From: Escherichia phage vB_Eco_ZCEC08
Sequence record: PP213477.1
Reading direction: 5' to 3' (one strand)
Length of the DNA stretch: 47,926 nucleotides
Part shown: positions 38,240-44,782 of the stretch, one piece after another
How positions within the stretch are numbered: position 1 is the stretch's first letter
Layout of the letters: every line of letters starts with the position of its first letter
Translations under genes and position numbers: made by a program
Notes under the pieces: generated by a model
What the model was told of the DNA's origin: nothing
What the model saw: the letters and a program-made list of their open reading frames with translations, nothing else
Databases searched by the model: none

Positions 38240-40144
38240 TTAAAATTCTTTTCGGTGGATTATGTCGCGACCTTTATCATTAATGCGATGCGTGATGCGT
38301 TTTGGCGCTTTAATCAACCCCGCATACATCATGAACTGCTTGGCGTTCTGGCATTTCAATATTTTCCCAGCCATTGACTTATCATCAAGGTGTGGGAATA
38401 CAGCCTTTGCCTTGAACATGTTTTTCATGTGAGTTGCGCCGCCATAAGGGTAGAAAACTTCATTAGCCCAGCCTTCTTTGCCATCACAACGGTTAATCCA
38501 GTAGCGATATAAAATCCCCTCTCCGTCCTTCGTTAGTTGAACCTTGAAATCCATAACATCAGCCCACTCGTTATCTGTATAAGCACGCTCATTCAGTGCC
38601 GAATTAGGGTCGCGCAACACGTGATCGCAATGTCTGCAATAGCGCGCAGTGGGGTCGTTTTTAGTGCCGCAACCATCATCAAAAATCCGGATTCCGTGCT
38701 TATCAAAACCGCAACGGATGTAACTGAAAAATTCTTCGCAGCGACCATCTGGAGATAGCGGGTCTTTCCCTATGCATCGACGCGCATATGGGCTGTTCAT
38801 TGTTCCACATGTATGACACGGAACTTGTTCGCCACTGCGTTTTGAACGTTGCGCTTCAGCCTCTTCCAGAATCGGGTCTTCATACAGCTGACCAAGCTCA
38901 AACATCGTGCCAGAGAAATCAAGAACCAGATGGTCTTCTTTATGATACCCGGCATCAATTTGCTCTTTCTTCAGTAGGCGCATTCCGCGACCAAGAAGCT
39001 GGACAAGGAGAGTTAGCGACATTATTTTTCGCAATATGCAGCTCGTATCCCATAACGGTATATTTACGCCAGTGGTAAGGGCGGCTATCTGGAATGTGAA
39101 TTTTTTACGCCCGGTGTATGCATCTTTTAGAGCCTTCCTTCTGGCTTTTGACCCCATATCTTCTGTAACTATTGAATAACTTCCTTCGGGTAGGTATTTT
39201 GCCGCCTCCTGACAATGTTTTTTACCAGCACATGTAATCAGTACGCCGTTTCTGTTTTTAGTCAACTCCATAACCTTGAGCATGATTTTCTGCGTCAACG
39301 TACCTTGCTCAAGAATTTCTTTCTGCATCTGCTTGAGCTGCTCGGCGGTAAAGTCCTGAGTACCATCAACATCTGAACCATGAAAATCCGAAAGGTCATA
39401 ATGCAGACTATCAACATCATGAAGACCAAAAATTGTTGGAACAAGAAAACCGTTTTCAACCATGTACTTGGTGTCTATGTTGATAATCTCTTTCTTCCAG
39501 AAAGCGCCTTTTATTGATGTAGTTCCGCGAAACGGTGAGCCTGTATAACCTATTATTCTCAACTCATGGCCATGCTTATCTTTACACCTTTTCATTAGCT
39601 CATTAATTATCACTGCATACTGCGTATCACCATTATTAACAACATCAATGTCATTAACCATATGATTTTCATCGATCAGCAGGAATCTTGGGCAAAAGTC
39701 AGAGAGCGCACCTTTTGCAATAACATTCCCATGCTCATCTTTTTTATCAAACAAAGCATTTACAACAGTACCCTCAGAACCACAGATTATTGGGTACGTA
39801 GAACTTTTCCTACCCAACGAAGCACTGAATAGCGAGTTTCTAACACCAAGCAACCATAGCTCTTCCGCATCTTGCTCCACTATTTCGCCCTGTCTTGATA
39901 AAATCATCCCTGAATAGCCCATCTCCTGAAAACGCTTTGCTATCATGGCAATCATCAGTGACTTTCCGCTACCGACACTTGCTGTTACATAGCTTGGGCC
40001 AACATAATGACGAATCACATCGCCAGTTAACTTATATATCAACCACTGATAGGGTCTTGGCTCGATATCACCAGTATCCAGATAAGATTTCAGCAGATTA
40101 ATATCAATCTCTGAAATCATTTTGTCGATTTTATGCATTACCAA
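38240..40144 (-). CDS. superfamily 2 DNA helicase with C-terminal zinc-ribbon region
   Basis: Walker A SVGSGKS, motif II LIDENH, TGSPFRG; Cys-rich C-terminal part. Confidence 0.7.
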   Translation of the reverse strand: MVMHKIDKMISEIDINLLKSYLDTGDIEPRPYQWLIYKLTGDVIRHYVGPSYVTASVGSGKSLMIAMIAKRFQEMGYSGMILSRQGEIVEQDAEELWLLGVRNSLFSASLGRKSSTYPIICGSEGTVVNALFDKKDEHGNVIAKGALSDFCPRFLLIDENHMVNDIDVVNNGDTQYAVIINELMKRCKDKHGHELRIIGYTGSPFRGTTSIKGAFWKKEIINIDTKYMVENGFLVPTIFGLHDVDSLHYDLSDFHGSDVDGTQDFTAEQLKQMQKEILEQGTLTQKIMLKVMELTKNRNGVLITCAGKKHCQEAAKYLPEGSYSIVTEDMGSKARRKALKDAYTGRKKFTFQIAALTTGVNIPLWDTSCILRKIMSLTLLVQLLGRGMRLLKKEQIDAGYHKEDHLVLDFSGTMFELGQLYEDPILEEAEAQRSKRSGEQVPCHTCGTMNSPYARRCIGKDPLSPDGRCEEFFSYIRCGFDKHGIRIFDDGCGTKNDPTARYCRHCDHVLRDPNSALNERAYTDNEWADVMDFKVQLTKDGEGILYRYWINRCDGKEGWANEVFYPYGGATHMKNMFKAKAVFPHLDDKSMAGKILKCQNAKQFMMYAGLIKAPKRITHRINDKGRDIIHRKEF

Positions 40145-40401
40145 ATCCTCGCACCAAGACGTTCAATTGTTTGTTTCTTTGTTTCATCATCTATTCCGCT
40201 ATAAAAATACATATAACTAAGATTCCATAGATAATCTTCTGGTCGCTCATCGGCAAACAAATCATCCCACTCAAAAATCCATTCTCCAGTTCTCTGTCTT
40301 CTGTATATGGTTAGCCATGTATTGCTTCGTGGCGGGTATCCGAAGGCAACAGGGATTGGCTTGCCATGAAAAATCCTCTTAAAAATGCTATCAAGGAACA
40401 C
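40138..40401 (-). CDS. hypothetical protein (87 aa)
   Basis: ORF track; start overlaps helicase start region. Confidence 0.45.
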   Translation of the reverse strand: MFLDSIFKRIFHGKPIPVAFGYPPRSNTWLTIYRRQRTGEWIFEWDDLFADERPEDYLWNLSYMYFYSGIDDETKKQTIERLGARIW

Positions 40402-40416
40402 TGCTATATCCTTTTA

Positions 40417-40446
40417 TTGATGTTTCTACGTCAGTTAGCTTATACT
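40417..40446 (+). promoter_or_regulatory. sigma70-like promoter (TTGATG - 18 nt - TATACT) with TCTAC motifs
   Basis: hexamers read directly; about 30 nt upstream of primase ATG. Confidence 0.4.
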
Positions 40447-40476
40447 CAATCTACACCAACAATCAAGGGTCAATTT

Positions 40477-41430
40477 ATGAGATACGACTGGAAAGACATT
40501 GAGCCAAAAATGCTCGGCAACTGGCAGGCTGCCATCATGTCTATCGTCAATGTGGATAGCAGAGTTTTCAATGGCAAGCACCAGCCTTGCCCTTCATGCT
40601 CCGGCAAAGACAGGTATCGCTTTGATGATAGCTTCGAAACAAAGGGCGATGGCGGCGCAATATGCAATCAGTGCGGGTCCGGCAGCGGCATGAACTGGCT
40701 GATGAAACTCTCCGGAATGAGCTTTCCTGAAGCGCTGGAGGCACTTGGTGGATTCCTGAATATGCACCCGCGTGAAAAGCTGGAGGCAATCAGGAAAGAG
40801 CTACCGAAGATAAATCACAGCGATGACTTCATCACCGAGCAGGAAGTCGCAGCAATCATGGCTAAAACGACTCGTGTCGCGATGAATGAGTGGACTTTGA
40901 TAAATGGTATTGGTTGCGACGTTAACGTCACCAGAGGCAAATCTGGAGAACTTATTGCGGTTGAGATGATGCGAGCTGACACAATGAAACTGTGCAACGT
41001 GGCATTCATTGGCATGGATGGTGATTCAATCAGAACGTTTTTCCGCGCAGGATACAACAAGGACTCAGCCATCAACGGCAAACTCACGCGCGGCGCGATA
41101 AGCCCAATCGGAGAAGACAACGGGAAGTTCATTTACCTGGTATCTGATTATGCCGATGCGTGGAAATGCCACTACTTCACTGGCGCTCATGCCTGGTGCT
41201 GCTGGTCGCCGGAAAACATGTGGGAGGTTGTGCGCTCGGTTAGCGATGAAACGAAGGCGAGATTGCGCTGCATAGTTAATTATAAATTTGACGAGCTTTG
41301 CGCTGCGGGAAATGCAGGACTTCCGGTGATGCTACCTGATGATGCTGACACAATCAGGATGGCGAAGCGAATCAGAAGAAAGATTTATGACGCTGGCGAG
41401 TTGATAGAGAAAATGTCAGTCATCAGATAA
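40477..41430 (+). CDS. DNA primase (zinc-ribbon type)
   Basis: start moved to MRYDWKD (residue 38); CPSCSGKDRYRFDD...CNQCGSG zinc-ribbon motif typical of phage primases. Confidence 0.6.
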   Translation: MRYDWKDIEPKMLGNWQAAIMSIVNVDSRVFNGKHQPCPSCSGKDRYRFDDSFETKGDGGAICNQCGSGSGMNWLMKLSGMSFPEALEALGGFLNMHPREKLEAIRKELPKINHSDDFITEQEVAAIMAKTTRVAMNEWTLINGIGCDVNVTRGKSGELIAVEMMRADTMKLCNVAFIGMDGDSIRTFFRAGYNKDSAINGKLTRGAISPIGEDNGKFIYLVSDYADAWKCHYFTGAHAWCCWSPENMWEVVRSVSDETKARLRCIVNYKFDELCAAGNAGLPVMLPDDADTIRMAKRIRRKIYDAGELIEKMSVIR

Positions 41431-41432
41431 AA

Positions 41433-41458
41433 TAAACCCTCCATCTGGAGGGTTTTTG
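41433..41458. terminator. bidirectional rho-independent terminator
   Basis: ACCCTCCA-TCTG-GAGGGT then TTTTGTT. Confidence 0.55.
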
Positions 41459-41875
41459 TTATTCTTTGAACTCTGGCGCTTCAGTCCAGAAAGCTACATT
41501 TCGCAGCGACTTACCAGTGTGATTGCACCAGTATATTCCTGAGTCGTCATACCTGGCAGTAACCTTGACGCGATCAGCATCAATAATAACAACCTCCTGT
41601 CCATCTTTAGGGTCGAAAAGACGCGCATCTTTCCAGTTGGCAATCTCATTAAAGGAAAGAAGAATATAGCCGGGAAGATAATCTCCGACATCATCGATGT
41701 GATCTATGGCTCTCTCCGTTCTCTCTCCTGTGTAGCCTCCATTCCACTCATAAAGAATGATAGTGTCTCCAACCTTAAAATCACGGCCCTTCTTTATTAT
41801 TTCAGCTTTCTTGTGCCCGGTAACTACAGGCCAGAAGTGCTCAGGTAAAATTTTAAGTTCGTGTGTTTTGCTCAT
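41459..41875 (-). CDS. ASCH-like / DUF3850-like protein
   Basis: THELKILPEHFWPVVTGHKKAEIIKKGRDFKVGDTIILYEW pattern. Confidence 0.45.
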   Translation of the reverse strand: MSKTHELKILPEHFWPVVTGHKKAEIIKKGRDFKVGDTIILYEWNGGYTGERTERAIDHIDDVGDYLPGYILLSFNEIANWKDARLFDPKDGQEVVIIDADRVKVTARYDDSGIYWCNHTGKSLRNVAFWTEAPEFKE

Positions 41876-43467
41876 TTCAAACCCCTCATAAATCTCATGC
41901 GCTTAACAGCAGCAGAAAGATAATTTCTAACCGTTGAGTTCATTCGCAGACCATCCCATGAGCCATCACCGCACATCTTTATAGCTCTTGGGTTATCCCT
42001 GTCCAGCATTAGTGGTGAATGCTTATTTTCCTCAATAGCAAGAAGAACCTCATAAACAAACTTATCAGGTGTTAGTGTGATGTTATTAGAGTCAGCAGAA
42101 TTGATTATCTTTTTAATTCTATCACGACACAGCTTGTTCTTTATAACAGACAAGTAAGGCGTTTTAATGAATGCCTGTGATTCACAAATTCGCTTAATTT
42201 TTTCTACAATGTTCTCCCATTCAGTATTTTCAAGTCCATCAAACTCCTGTTCGCCCTCAAGGAATCTTTGCAGACCAGCGAGATGCTCAAGAACTACGAT
42301 ATATCCCCATTCGACATGCTCCATCGTAACTGCTGGCGTCATTCCACGGCGACTTGACAGATCTGCGTAAGCCGCAAGCGTTGCAAGGTCTACAATCATT
42401 AGCCCCATGCGCGGGATAACGTCACCAACAACACCATCGCGATCACCAAGCTCACTTTCCAGTTTCATAGACAGAGATCTGTGCAGTTTTTTCACATCAT
42501 CATCAGCCCATACAGCGTTAGTTTTCGCGGTAAGAATCCTACCCTTCCACTCATTGATTATTTTTCTTGAAAGTGTGCCGCTAGCTTCCACATCCTTCAT
42601 CGCTGGCATTTCCTCACCAGCAAGATGTCCAAGCTGAAACAGCACTCGCCCCATGCCGCCATCTTTCTGCCATGAACGCGCAGCATCTATTCCCTGCTCT
42701 GGAGTGACAGTAATCAGCGGAACAAATTTTGCGTTTTCAATTCCACCGTCTTTTGTTGCAAGTTCGTACTCATTCATTGCCGACTTGAGCGCGCGCCCAA
42801 CGCTGTGGTCCATCATCGCAAGGCGCTTATAATCTATGACGCCTTTCCCATCATCACCACCAGTAAGTGGCACTATCCATCCCTCAGCACTTGCTGCCGC
42901 CATGATGCGTTTTGGGTTTTGTTCCCAAGTAAGGTTTTCAAGCAGCTCCTTGATTATTGGTCTGTTAGGCACCCACACGCCGCCATCAGTGAGGCCTCTA
43001 TACCACGCCATAGTACCGCCAAGATATGCATTGCGCGGGTTGTTCCAGTCTTCAAGATGTTGTTTGTCATCGTTCACAACGTAGAGCAAAGAACCACCTC
43101 CAGCAATCAGGTCTAACTGCATCTGTTTCGTCGAGGTTGATTTAGATGCGCAAACTCTGGAGCCAATTCCCAGTGCATTGGAATATGCCCTAACGAAACT
43201 CACAGGGGCACCCTTACCTGCACCAGAGCGAGCCACCAGAAATATACCAGTATTGCAGATACTACCTGTTGGACCAATCAAATATCGTCCAGCCATCGCC
43301 TGAGTAAGACCCAAGGCACCAGTTAAGCGATATCTCTCCCCATCATTACGGCGCTCAAAGTTTTTCGCAATCTCATCCATAAACTCACCAAGTGCACCAG
43401 GAGCCTTCCTGTTTATACCCATAGCCATAGAATCAAAATCAATAGCGCCCATCAATATACTCTCCAT
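41872..43467 (-). CDS. hypothetical replication-module protein (531 aa)
   Basis: ORF track; degenerate P-loop-like LVARSGAGKGA; function not recognised. Confidence 0.5.
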   Translation of the reverse strand: MESILMGAIDFDSMAMGINRKAPGALGEFMDEIAKNFERRNDGERYRLTGALGLTQAMAGRYLIGPTGSICNTGIFLVARSGAGKGAPVSFVRAYSNALGIGSRVCASKSTSTKQMQLDLIAGGGSLLYVVNDDKQHLEDWNNPRNAYLGGTMAWYRGLTDGGVWVPNRPIIKELLENLTWEQNPKRIMAAASAEGWIVPLTGGDDGKGVIDYKRLAMMDHSVGRALKSAMNEYELATKDGGIENAKFVPLITVTPEQGIDAARSWQKDGGMGRVLFQLGHLAGEEMPAMKDVEASGTLSRKIINEWKGRILTAKTNAVWADDDVKKLHRSLSMKLESELGDRDGVVGDVIPRMGLMIVDLATLAAYADLSSRRGMTPAVTMEHVEWGYIVVLEHLAGLQRFLEGEQEFDGLENTEWENIVEKIKRICESQAFIKTPYLSVIKNKLCRDRIKKIINSADSNNITLTPDKFVYEVLLAIEENKHSPLMLDRDNPRAIKMCGDGSWDGLRMNSTVRNYLSAAVKRMRFMRGLK

Positions 43468-43781
43468 ACTCGCAAGAATTTGCCAGGGATAATACCTTGT
43501 TTCACCGTTAACACAGCGCCAACCCTGTCCGCCTCAATTTTTAGCGCCTTCTGAAGTGACGTCATTGTCATCTGAAAACCTCGCTCTATATCGTATGCGT
43601 AGCACCCATCTCTTCTACCAATCAAAATTGAAGTTGAATACCCGTTCTCAAAGTAAAACTGACACCCATCAGGAGCGGTAAGATTATTTATCACGTCGTG
43701 AGCAAGCGATGTCGTTACAGGGAATATAGGCGCGCAACTCATACCTACCTCACTCAACTCGCTTAATGTGCAAAACTTCAT
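43452..43781 (-). CDS. hypothetical protein
   Basis: ORF track. Confidence 0.4.
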   Translation of the reverse strand: MKFCTLSELSEVGMSCAPIFPVTTSLAHDVINNLTAPDGCQFYFENGYSTSILIGRRDGCYAYDIERGFQMTMTSLQKALKIEADRVGAVLTVKQGIIPGKFLRVWRVY

Positions 43782-43980
43782 CGAAATATGAGCACGTTCT
43801 GAATTTCATCCCAAAATCCTCACCAACCCTTCCGAGACACGCGCGAAATCTTTCAACAGACAGACCTTTATATGCAATGTCCTCATAAGCAATCGAATTA
43901 ACCTGACCAACATCCATATGTTTTGCAACGCGATACACAAACTCCATCTTTGAACCATCACGATACATTTTGTTTCTCAT
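43750..43980 (-). CDS. hypothetical protein (first gene of the replication operon)
   Basis: ORF track 43750..44013; start moved to the ATG that follows GGAGGT. Confidence 0.4.
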   Translation of the reverse strand: MRNKMYRDGSKMEFVYRVAKHMDVGQVNSIAYEDIAYKGLSVERFRACLGRVGEDFGMKFRTCSYFDEVLHIKRVE

Positions 43981-44013
43981 AGTAACCTCCATCTGAATTC
44001 CAGCAGTAACCAT

Positions 44014-44635
44014 AGATAAAAAATAAAATTAACGCAACACAAAACAGGTCTAACCAGCAACAATAGCTACCACACTTAATAACTGGTCAGACCACCATCC
44101 CGTATCTGATATATGTGGATGGCGCCTGTCGTTCAATTTGAACTCGATTTTTACCTAATTTACCGTATATTTATCGGTCGGTTTTTTGCATAAATAATTG
44201 ATTTATAGTATTTTACCTGTTTTACCGTAACTCTAAGGAGTATTTTCATCATTAAGAGTGGTAGTATATTAATTGGTCTAATTTTAAAGAAATCTAATAA
44301 AATCAATATATTAATATAAAAGAATAGCTTACTTACTTCTATAGTATTTACCTGGTAAAACCGGTAACTCCTCCGAAGGCCGCGTCATTACTGGATTCAT
44401 TTTTACCGCCTGTAGGTAAATACAGTAGTTTTCAATCCGTTATTGCTCTTCTAAGCTGTTGATTACCGGTACTTTATTTGGGAAACCGGCATTTACCGGT
44501 TTTTGTGGTGTGATTAATAATCGAGCAACTGGTCCTGTTTCACCAGAACCAACTAATGCGACGCCTGAAAATCATGTTGACGTAGAATCATCATTGATGT
44601 AGATTGAACTAATCGAAACAAACGAGGGTGAAGAG
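44014..44635. repeat. AT-rich non-coding region with iteron-like TTTACC(G) repeats and ACCGGT palindromes; candidate origin
   Basis: direct TTTACC copies near 44148, 44159, 44211, 44221, 44347, 44401; inverted copy near 44415; ACCGGT near 44360, 44465, 44495; no ORF of 60 aa or more. Confidence 0.35.
44577..44605 (+). promoter_or_regulatory. sigma70-like promoter TTGACG-17-TAGATT
   Basis: hexamers read directly; about 30 nt upstream of the ATG at 44636. Confidence 0.45.
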
Positions 44636-44782
44636 ATGAAAATCAAAGACCGAGAAGAATTTGAAGATGCTCAGGCTATGGCGCGCATTGCAGTTGAGCG
44701 CACAAATAACAGTATACCTGCCGACGCATTCTGGAACGCAGCAATGCAGGCGTTAATCTCAGCATATGGCTTAAGCAAATGA
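44636..44782 (+). CDS. small hypothetical protein (48 aa)
   Basis: hand-translated MKIKDREEFEDAQAMARIAVERTNNSIPADAFW...; GAGGGTGAAGAG upstream. Confidence 0.4.
   Translation: MKIKDREEFEDAQAMARIAVERTNNSIPADAFWNAAMQALISAYGLSK

Follow-up and report, generated by a model that had tools for sequence, protein, structure and literature searches.

A highly divergent MCM-like AAA+ protein of the DUF3987 superfamily, the probable replicative helicase of Escherichia phage vB_Eco_ZCEC08

Introduction

DUF3987 proteins are predicted to be MCM-related replicative helicases of superfamily 6 (SF6) that carry a C-terminal winged helix and are fused or adjacent to primases (PMC4889955). Among them, ATP-dependent helicase activity is known only for AgaPH, a PriCT-DUF3987 protein that acts as a Walker A/B-dependent 5'-3' helicase and binds its primase (PMC11724360). 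Here we describe a gene on the minus strand, at positions 41872-43467, of the genome of Escherichia phage vB_Eco_ZCEC08 (PP213477.1), the 47,926 nucleotides of which are referred to as the window. The encoded protein of 531 amino acid residues (aa) is probably a highly divergent MCM-like (SF6) AAA+ ATPase of the DUF3987 superfamily and most likely serves as the replicative helicase of the phage. This is a re-annotation, which adds a very divergent member to the known DUF3987/MCM-like SF6 helicases and not a new kind of system.

Three groups of described proteins invite comparison. The first comprises the DUF3987 helicases of phages and mobile elements, such as AgaPH and, from PHROG 2373, Shigella phage DS8 gp30 and Vi II-E1 VIP0048, of which the latter two occupy the same genomic slot as the window protein. 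Similar length, association with a primase and a shared succession of parts, from N-terminal helices through Walker A ([ST]xGK), Walker B, the sensor-1 strand and a G..R-hydrophobic motif to a helical lid and a C-terminal winged helix, unite the window protein with this group. Unlike the DS8 type, it has GK-G in place of GK-T in Walker A and N-D-D in place of S-D-E in Walker B, and its large helical insertion follows Walker B, whereas that of the DS8 type separates Walker A from Walker B. The second group contains the nearest relatives that can be recognised beyond the core family, namely the helicases of the ZDD2/LPSTLL type (PHROG 33132) and PrimPol-PriCT fusion proteins (PHROG 3022 and 25777; Vibrio phage 1.174.O gp65, Serratia phage Eta, Brucella phage Pr). 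They resemble the window protein with Foldseek E-values of 2e-19 to 1e-13 and share its Walker A form, [ST]xxGK followed by a residue other than Ser or Thr; in ZDD2 and LPSTLL a divergent or convergent Zn-ribbon primase and a superfamily 2 (SF2) helicase are likewise neighbours. Sequence identity to this group is only 15-25%, its Walker B has the canonical DE, and many of the fusion group are joined to AEP primase domains, whereas the window protein stands alone. The third group, the archaeal and eukaryotic MCM proteins, shows only 8-14% identity, an N-terminal OB-fold/zinc domain that the window protein lacks, and a Foldseek E-value of ~0.02 in the PDB. The polarity of MCM is 3'-5'.

SCCmec Cch, SaPI Rep and the alpha protein of phage P4 are self-loading, origin-specific initiator helicases of mobile elements. 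Their likeness to the window protein would be a functional analogy; the structural similarity is much weaker than that to MCM.

The gene and its start codon

The window is a complete siphovirus genome of ~48 kb with the terminase gene at its start; its closest relatives are the Escherichia phages ASO78B, Bas77, Bas80 and Bas81 (Skatevirus cluster). The open reading frame (ORF), whose strand the preliminary description had not given, is uninterrupted and represents a real gene, since homologues with 47-98% identity exist. Four sequenced phages encode the protein at 93-98% identity. The likely start codon is the second ATG (Met6, 43452), giving a protein of 526 aa. It is preferred because the Shine-Dalgarno sequence GGAGAG lies 8-13 nt upstream of it and because it overlaps the stop codon of the upstream gene (TGATG), while the first ATG has no Shine-Dalgarno sequence. 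Relatives are annotated from the equivalent start (525-526 aa).

The preliminary description had placed the gene at the head of a module with primase and helicase genes. It is instead the third gene of a leftward operon, which consists of a 76-aa gene, a 96-aa gene, the helicase gene and an ASCH gene, whose start overlaps the helicase stop codon (ATGA). The operon ends in a bidirectional terminator (41434-41455) that also serves the convergent primase gene; beyond the latter lies the SF2 helicase gene. The proposed position beside a candidate origin was borne out: the gene adjoins the intergenic region 44014-44635, rich in repeats and in AT, and its transcription runs away from this region. 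The following features were assigned to the gene.

41872..43467, minus strand: ORF of the probable MCM-like AAA+ (DUF3987-superfamily) helicase, 531 aa as read, probably 526 aa
43288..43467, minus strand: short N-terminal helical region, residues 1-60, without an MCM-type OB/zinc domain
42568..43287, minus strand: AAA+ ATPase core, residues 61-300, from the predicted structure and the motif alignment
43207..43233, minus strand: Walker A (P-loop) ARSGAGKGA, residues 79-87, G84 invariant and K85 nearly so
43066..43089, minus strand: Walker B strand LLYVVNDD (N132-D133-D134)
42694..42729, minus strand: sensor-1 strand KFVPLITVTPEQ with the conserved motif [ST][TS]P
42646..42660, minus strand: GGMGR motif, G270 and R274 invariant, R274 a candidate arginine finger
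42253..42567, minus strand: alpha-helical lid, residues 301-405
42409-42411, minus strand: invariant R353 in the helical lid, candidate sensor 2
41875..42252, minus strand: C-terminal region of helices and a winged helix, residues 406-531, with a presumed role in binding DNA or a partner

Homology to the DUF3987 superfamily

Direct searches with the protein returned little. No family was found in Pfam at E<=1 and none in NCBIfam; phmmer against PDB sequences gave chance matches only (E>=0.5), and a word-indexed search of 5.8 billion proteins yielded just six relatives. All relatives in GenBank are labelled "hypothetical protein". The one direct family match was PHROG 3022, "DNA primase" (E 1.5e-13, query residues 20-429), whose name suggests that the protein is itself a primase. 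This match spans only positions 356-712 of the 788 profile positions. In Vibrio phage 1.174.O gp65, a member of PHROG 3022, the Prim-Pol and PriCT_2 domains occupy residues 67-277, and the region resembling the window protein follows them; the match therefore represents the non-primase half of primase-helicase fusions. Considering further that no AEP or TOPRIM domain was detected with Pfam, that the protein has an AAA+ fold and that a separate Zn-ribbon/TOPRIM primase is encoded at 40366-41430, a primase identity is effectively refuted and retains hardly any probability.

Profile searches were more informative. An exhaustive HMMER search of 1.84 billion representatives with the family profile retrieved 47 proteins at E<=1e-3 and ten at E<=1e-30. 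The family is narrow; its core was found in only ten IMG/VR contigs, all of them genomes or fragments of 32-51 kb. An alignment of 42 sequences was built from the window protein and the full-length matches. Twenty of these 42 match Pfam DUF3987 (PF13148, gathering score 27 bits) at E<=0.01, and others carry Prim-Pol, PriCT_2, RepB_primase or NrS-1 HBD domains. One matched protein (P0023), retrieved by the family profile at a library-wide E-value of 6.4e-8, passes the DUF3987 cut-off with 40.5 bits (E 2.6e-10).

Comparison of profiles with hhalign connected the core family to the ZDD2-like and fusion group with a probability of 100% (E 3.6e-42, 395 columns), and this group in turn to DUF3987 proteins of the DS8 type (97.6%, E 4.4e-12, 385 columns), for which an independent alignment of 38 DUF3987 proteins was used. 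In the second comparison Walker A, Walker B, sensor 1, the arginine motif and the C-terminus are in register. On Pfam DUF3987, the proteins at the syntenic position in DS8 and Vi II-E1 reach 116-120 bits. BLASTP of the window protein against the syntenic DS8 helicase found no similarity, and a hidden Markov model made from the DS8-type alignment matched none of the distant relatives. Membership in DUF3987 is thus at the level of the superfamily and is established via the intermediate ZDD2/fusion group because the direct match between the core family and the DS8 type is weak.

Predicted structure

The preliminary description had proposed a structure-prediction search. The AlphaFold model (AF2, with the 42-sequence alignment) reached a pLDDT of 92.4 and a pTM of 0.85, superseding an earlier run with seven close homologues that was unusable (pLDDT 52.5). 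Among the predicted viral structures of BFVD, 50 matched at E<1e-3. They include the "replicative DNA helicase" of LPSTLL (E 2e-19, TM 0.74/0.79), primase-polymerase fusions and many proteins named DUF3987.

The predicted fold belongs to the AAA+ clade of MCM, MoxR and Mg-chelatase (MCM/RavA/BchI). A mostly helical insertion of ~110 residues (135-242) is modelled between the Walker B and sensor-1 strands, where, judged by secondary structure, the pre-sensor-1 hairpin of MCM would lie. The ATPase core is preceded by only ~60 helical residues and hence by no N-terminal OB-fold or zinc-binding domain; the protein is therefore MCM-like and not an MCM orthologue. At the C-terminus, winged-helix proteins match a piece of 60-70 residues of the model and a profile search matches the winged helix of RPA32, which fits the helix-helix-strand-strand topology modelled for residues 449-498.

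Alternatively, the protein could act as an AAA+ ATPase outside replication, for instance as a MoxR/RavA-like remodeller, as a BrxL-like or anti-defence factor, or as an accessory to recombination by Erf, exonuclease and SF2 helicase. A weak match to DrmD in the defence search (PADLOC, E 0.044) and the recombination genes nearby would fit such a role. The MCM structural matches, however, outrank all candidates of this kind, no defence family matched significantly, the sequence homologues are primase-linked proteins of the DUF3987 type, the syntenic genes are annotated as helicases, and the gene is physically linked with iterons in one exchanged block. A non-replicative or accessory function is accordingly improbable, and the idea of a defence system was dropped with the DrmD match as its only sign. 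The replication role anticipated in the preliminary description is well supported; homology to a non-replication family, which would have contradicted it, was not encountered.

Catalytic motifs

No exchange of G84, G270, R274 or R353 occurs in the 42 aligned sequences, and K85 is conserved in at least 90% of them. In the extended family Walker A reads [ST]xxGK with D, E, G or Q, and not S or T, as the next residue; the DS8 type has SAGKT. The segment ARSGAGKGA had already been noticed in the preliminary description as a degenerate P-loop. It is a genuine Walker A in a form that, with its invariant glycine, is the norm of the family.

Both Walker motifs of DUF3987 can be recognised, with GK-G and N132 for the first Asp as variants. 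Distant members have hhhhDE as their Walker B and most core-family proteins DD[C/N/S/K], whereas N-D-D occurs in the window protein and four further sequences (P0001, P0002, P0003 and P0006). The third residue is acidic only in sequences with Asn at the first position, and the acidic pair D133/D134 is located at the end of beta-3. To judge from these sequences, the acidic pair of N-D-D seems to have slipped by one residue and not to have been lost.

In the alignment with the DS8 type, ITVTPEQ of the sensor-1 strand is paired with VIAQDES, and the G..GR-hydrophobic motif with GLSERF. R274 (GGMGR-VLF) corresponds in the alignment to GlSER-F in canonical DUF3987 proteins and is reminiscent of SRF in MCM. 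R274 and R353 are found at the secondary-structure positions expected for an arginine finger and for sensor 2, respectively, and are candidates for these functions.

The unusual motifs are also compatible with an AAA+ origin-binding initiator or helicase loader, following the logic of ORC/Cdc6, DnaA or DnaC, in which an ATP switch would melt the iterons and recruit host DnaB without unwinding by the protein itself. GK-G and N-D-D, the combination of AAA+ with a C-terminal winged helix common to Orc/Cdc6, ORC and Orc2 chains among the Foldseek matches in the PDB, and iterons that co-vary with the cassette all speak for it. The ORC matches, however, reach a TM of only 0.16-0.22, and the closest structural similarity was not to the Orc1/Cdc6 clade. 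Moreover, it is the helicase half of primase-helicase fusions to which the protein is homologous, the one DUF3987 protein characterised so far has proved to be a true helicase, the arginines proposed as arginine finger and sensor 2 do not vary, and the acidic pair is shifted in a compensating way instead of lost. We therefore regard an initiator or loader without unwinding activity as unlikely, if less so than a role outside replication.

An exchanged cassette with its own repeats

In DS8 and Vi II-E1 the slot between the ASCH and primase genes and the AT-rich intergenic region holds a 517-aa DUF3987 protein (PHROG 2373, "DNA helicase"), in LPSTLL a 495-aa "replicative DNA helicase". Serratia phage ZDD2 encodes a 496-aa relative, with a primase and an SF2 helicase of the same kind next to it. 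Primase identity between the window phage, DS8, LPSTLL and Vi II-E1 amounts to 93-96%, that of the SF2 helicases to 82-98%. In BLAST comparisons of the helicases at this locus, by contrast, neither the window protein and DS8 nor DS8 and LPSTLL matched each other, and window and LPSTLL proteins shared 25% identity over 190 residues.

At the nucleotide level the flanks are 88-97% similar to DS8, LPSTLL, Vi II-E1 and swi2 (loci L003, L004, L009 and L010), and similarity is lost inside. Its limits are as follows (window coordinates).

DS8: similarity stops at 41891 and resumes at 44575
LPSTLL: similarity stops at 41463 and resumes at 44577
Vi II-E1: similarity stops at 41619 and resumes at 44572
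swi2: similarity stops at 41523 and resumes at 44575

The right-hand boundary always falls at 44572-44577, at a rightward promoter-like site (TTGACG-17-TAGATT, 44577-44605). From these boundaries, the exchanged block (~41892-44574) consists of the helicase gene, two small genes and the AT-rich region.

44014..44574, no strand: AT-rich intergenic region, candidate origin with iterons, right-hand part of the exchanged cassette

The intergenic region 44014-44635 has a GC content of 35%. Nine copies of TTTACC(G), on both strands, are found within 350 bp (44150-44497); the whole genome contains 37 copies where shuffled sequences predict 17.4, and a count of 37 was reached in none of 100 shuffles. 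Judged from this repeat content, the region is a candidate origin. Two direct pairs are spaced 9 nt apart (44150/44159 and 44212/44221), and two pairs are inverted (44347/44354 and 44402/44415).

Across 20 loci of related phages, the repeated motif varies with the subtype of the helicase.

Window type (window, ASO78B, Bas77, L012): TTTACC(G)G, 9-10 copies in the window, ASO78B and Bas77; in L012, four CCGGTAAA 8-mers
swi2 type (swi2, L018-20): AGTTACCGG, 10-13 copies
Klebsiella type (BUCT541, L013-17, L021): GAGTTCCC, 6-8 copies
DS8 and Vi II-E1: TGCCCCACG, 5-6 copies
ZDD2: GATATCC, 9 copies
LPSTLL: GGATAAA, 5 copies

The sequence TGCCCCACGA was also recorded, beside AGTTACCGG, GAGTTCCC, GATATCC and GGATAAA, among the repeats that differ per subtype in related phages.

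The C-terminal winged-helix domain was considered as a fast-evolving reader of the iterons. It is 50-67% identical between subtypes and no more divergent than the remainder of the protein. The small 96-aa protein encoded upstream is only 26-31% identical to its homologues in swi2 and BUCT541, and the two small upstream proteins, not the helicase, may be the origin readers.

Taken further, the block 41892-44574 might be a self-contained, freely exchangeable origin cassette, in which an MCM-like helicase with a non-canonical catalytic site (no Ser/Thr in Walker A, a slipped N-D-D in Walker B) is loaded in a sequence-specific manner on its own iterons by one or two dedicated small proteins of an undescribed family, and which exists in at least three mutually unrecognisable forms interchangeable with a near-identical primase. 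We offer this extension tentatively and consider it somewhat doubtful. If true, the coupling of helicase and primase in these phages would be generic or indirect.

Role in phage replication

The assignment as a replicative helicase rests on the AAA+ fold, the motifs, the homology to primase-helicase fusions, the synteny and the linkage within the cassette. Adjacency to a primase, a trait of DUF3987 proteins, is seen here as well: the neighbouring gene encodes a Zn-ribbon/TOPRIM primase, and distant relatives are fused to Prim-Pol, PriCT_2 or RepB_primase. Several points weigh against the assignment. The Pfam DUF3987 model itself misses the 531-aa protein even at E<=1. Direct comparison of the core family with the DS8 type by hhalign is weak (16%, E 0.0016) and covers the C-terminal part only. 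Foldseek gave no match below E 1e-3 in the PDB and was only suggestive there. Catalytic competence is not assured, to judge from the GKG without the Mg-coordinating Ser/Thr and from the Asn as first acid of Walker B. Finally, the RadD-like SF2 helicase of the phage could do part of the unwinding.

Nonetheless, the replicative helicase remains our preferred interpretation, and the helicase is possibly origin-specific and would work with the separate primase and a host polymerase. Leftward early transcription would produce the helicase together with both small proteins. Either these small proteins or the winged-helix domain would recognise the TTTACC(G) iterons, and the ATPase would assemble as a ring on the melted origin DNA and unwind it with ATP. 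The Zn-ribbon/TOPRIM primase would then prime on the exposed strands and a host polymerase would elongate.

The preliminary description had listed an initiator, a helicase loader and a polymerase-associated factor as possible identities, leaving out the MCM-like helicase that is now best supported. Of the three, an initiator is possible as a second role of the helicase, given the C-terminal winged helix and the iterons co-varying with the cassette; a helicase loader is a weaker rival. Nothing supports a polymerase-associated factor, and in the close relative Bas77 no polymerase is annotated.

A function is hereby proposed for a gene called "hypothetical protein" in Bas77, Bas80, Bas81, ASO78B, swi2, BUCT541, KpnS_VR6602 and KLB16. 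It would fill the vacant slot of the replicative helicase in this polymerase-less group of enterobacterial siphoviruses, and would give the DUF3987/MCM-like superfamily a branch that is missed by the current Pfam model. The unusual Walker motifs could inform how much variation the catalytic site of AAA+ proteins tolerates. The sharply bounded cassette among near-identical primases represents a natural experiment on the compatibility of replication modules and predicts the location of the origin.

Neighbouring genes

The genes around the helicase gene are the following.

43750..44013, minus strand: small gene that opens the operon, ORF of 87 aa, with Met12 at 43980 as the probable start (76 aa)
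43452..43781, minus strand: small gene directly upstream of the helicase gene, 109-aa ORF, probably 96 aa from Met14 at 43742
41459..41875, minus strand: ASCH/DUF3850 gene, last of the operon
40366..41430, plus strand: Zn-ribbon/TOPRIM primase gene, convergent, probable start Met38 at 40477
38240-40144, minus strand: SF2 helicase gene, beyond the primase gene

The two small upstream proteins matched no known families; the 76-aa protein belongs to PHROG 28700, of unknown function. Upstream of their proposed start codons lie GAGGTAGGT (96-aa gene) and GGAGGT (76-aa gene). The 96-aa gene is translationally coupled to the helicase gene, and in swi2 and BUCT541 the gene immediately before a helicase of the same type encodes a homologue of its product. 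Both these phages have a single 92-aa protein there, similar to the two small proteins of the window: the 76-aa protein resembles its N-terminal part (DGSKMEFVY-like), the 96-aa protein most of it, including the C-terminal motif KF(L/M)..W(R/K)V. An AP2-domain protein encoded at the same position in DS8 showed no similarity to the small upstream protein.

The gene of the ASCH/DUF3850 protein, which is annotated as "RNA-binding protein" in relatives, shows translational coupling with the helicase gene. DS8 has the protein at 90% identity, and LPSTLL has unrelated small genes instead; the gene is therefore not a fixed part of the cassette. The terminator behind it is a stem-loop with a perfect 9-bp stem (AAACCCTCC-ATCT-GGAGGGTTT), bordered by T-runs on either strand, and ASO78B has an annotated terminator just downstream of its own primase gene. 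An Rfam scan of 41300-44700 found no structured RNA at E<=0.1, and the notion of one in this interval was dropped.

The convergent primase gene lies ~440 bp from the helicase gene. Its product has the Zn-ribbon and TOPRIM-type parts only (the N-terminal half of PHROG 510) and no helicase domain. Compared with the start used in DS8, LPSTLL and Vi II-E1, the ORF is 37 codons longer at its 5' end; translation probably begins at Met38, and relatives are similar in nucleotide sequence from 40474 onwards. An 87-aa minus-strand ORF (40138-40401; PHROG 5903, of unknown function) between the SF2 helicase and primase genes overlaps this extension. Relatives (L001, L003, L004, L009 and L010) have an HNH endonuclease gene of 0.5-1 kb at that place, and by this sequence comparison the interval appears as a presence/absence polymorphism of a homing-endonuclease-like gene.

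The SF2 helicase resembles RadD (NCBIfam E 5e-53, below the equivalog cut-off), has C-terminal zinc ribbons and is probably not the fork helicase. Its gene is situated within a recombination module, which in relatives comprises a VRR-NUC-like protein, exonuclease VIII and an Erf-like annealing protein.

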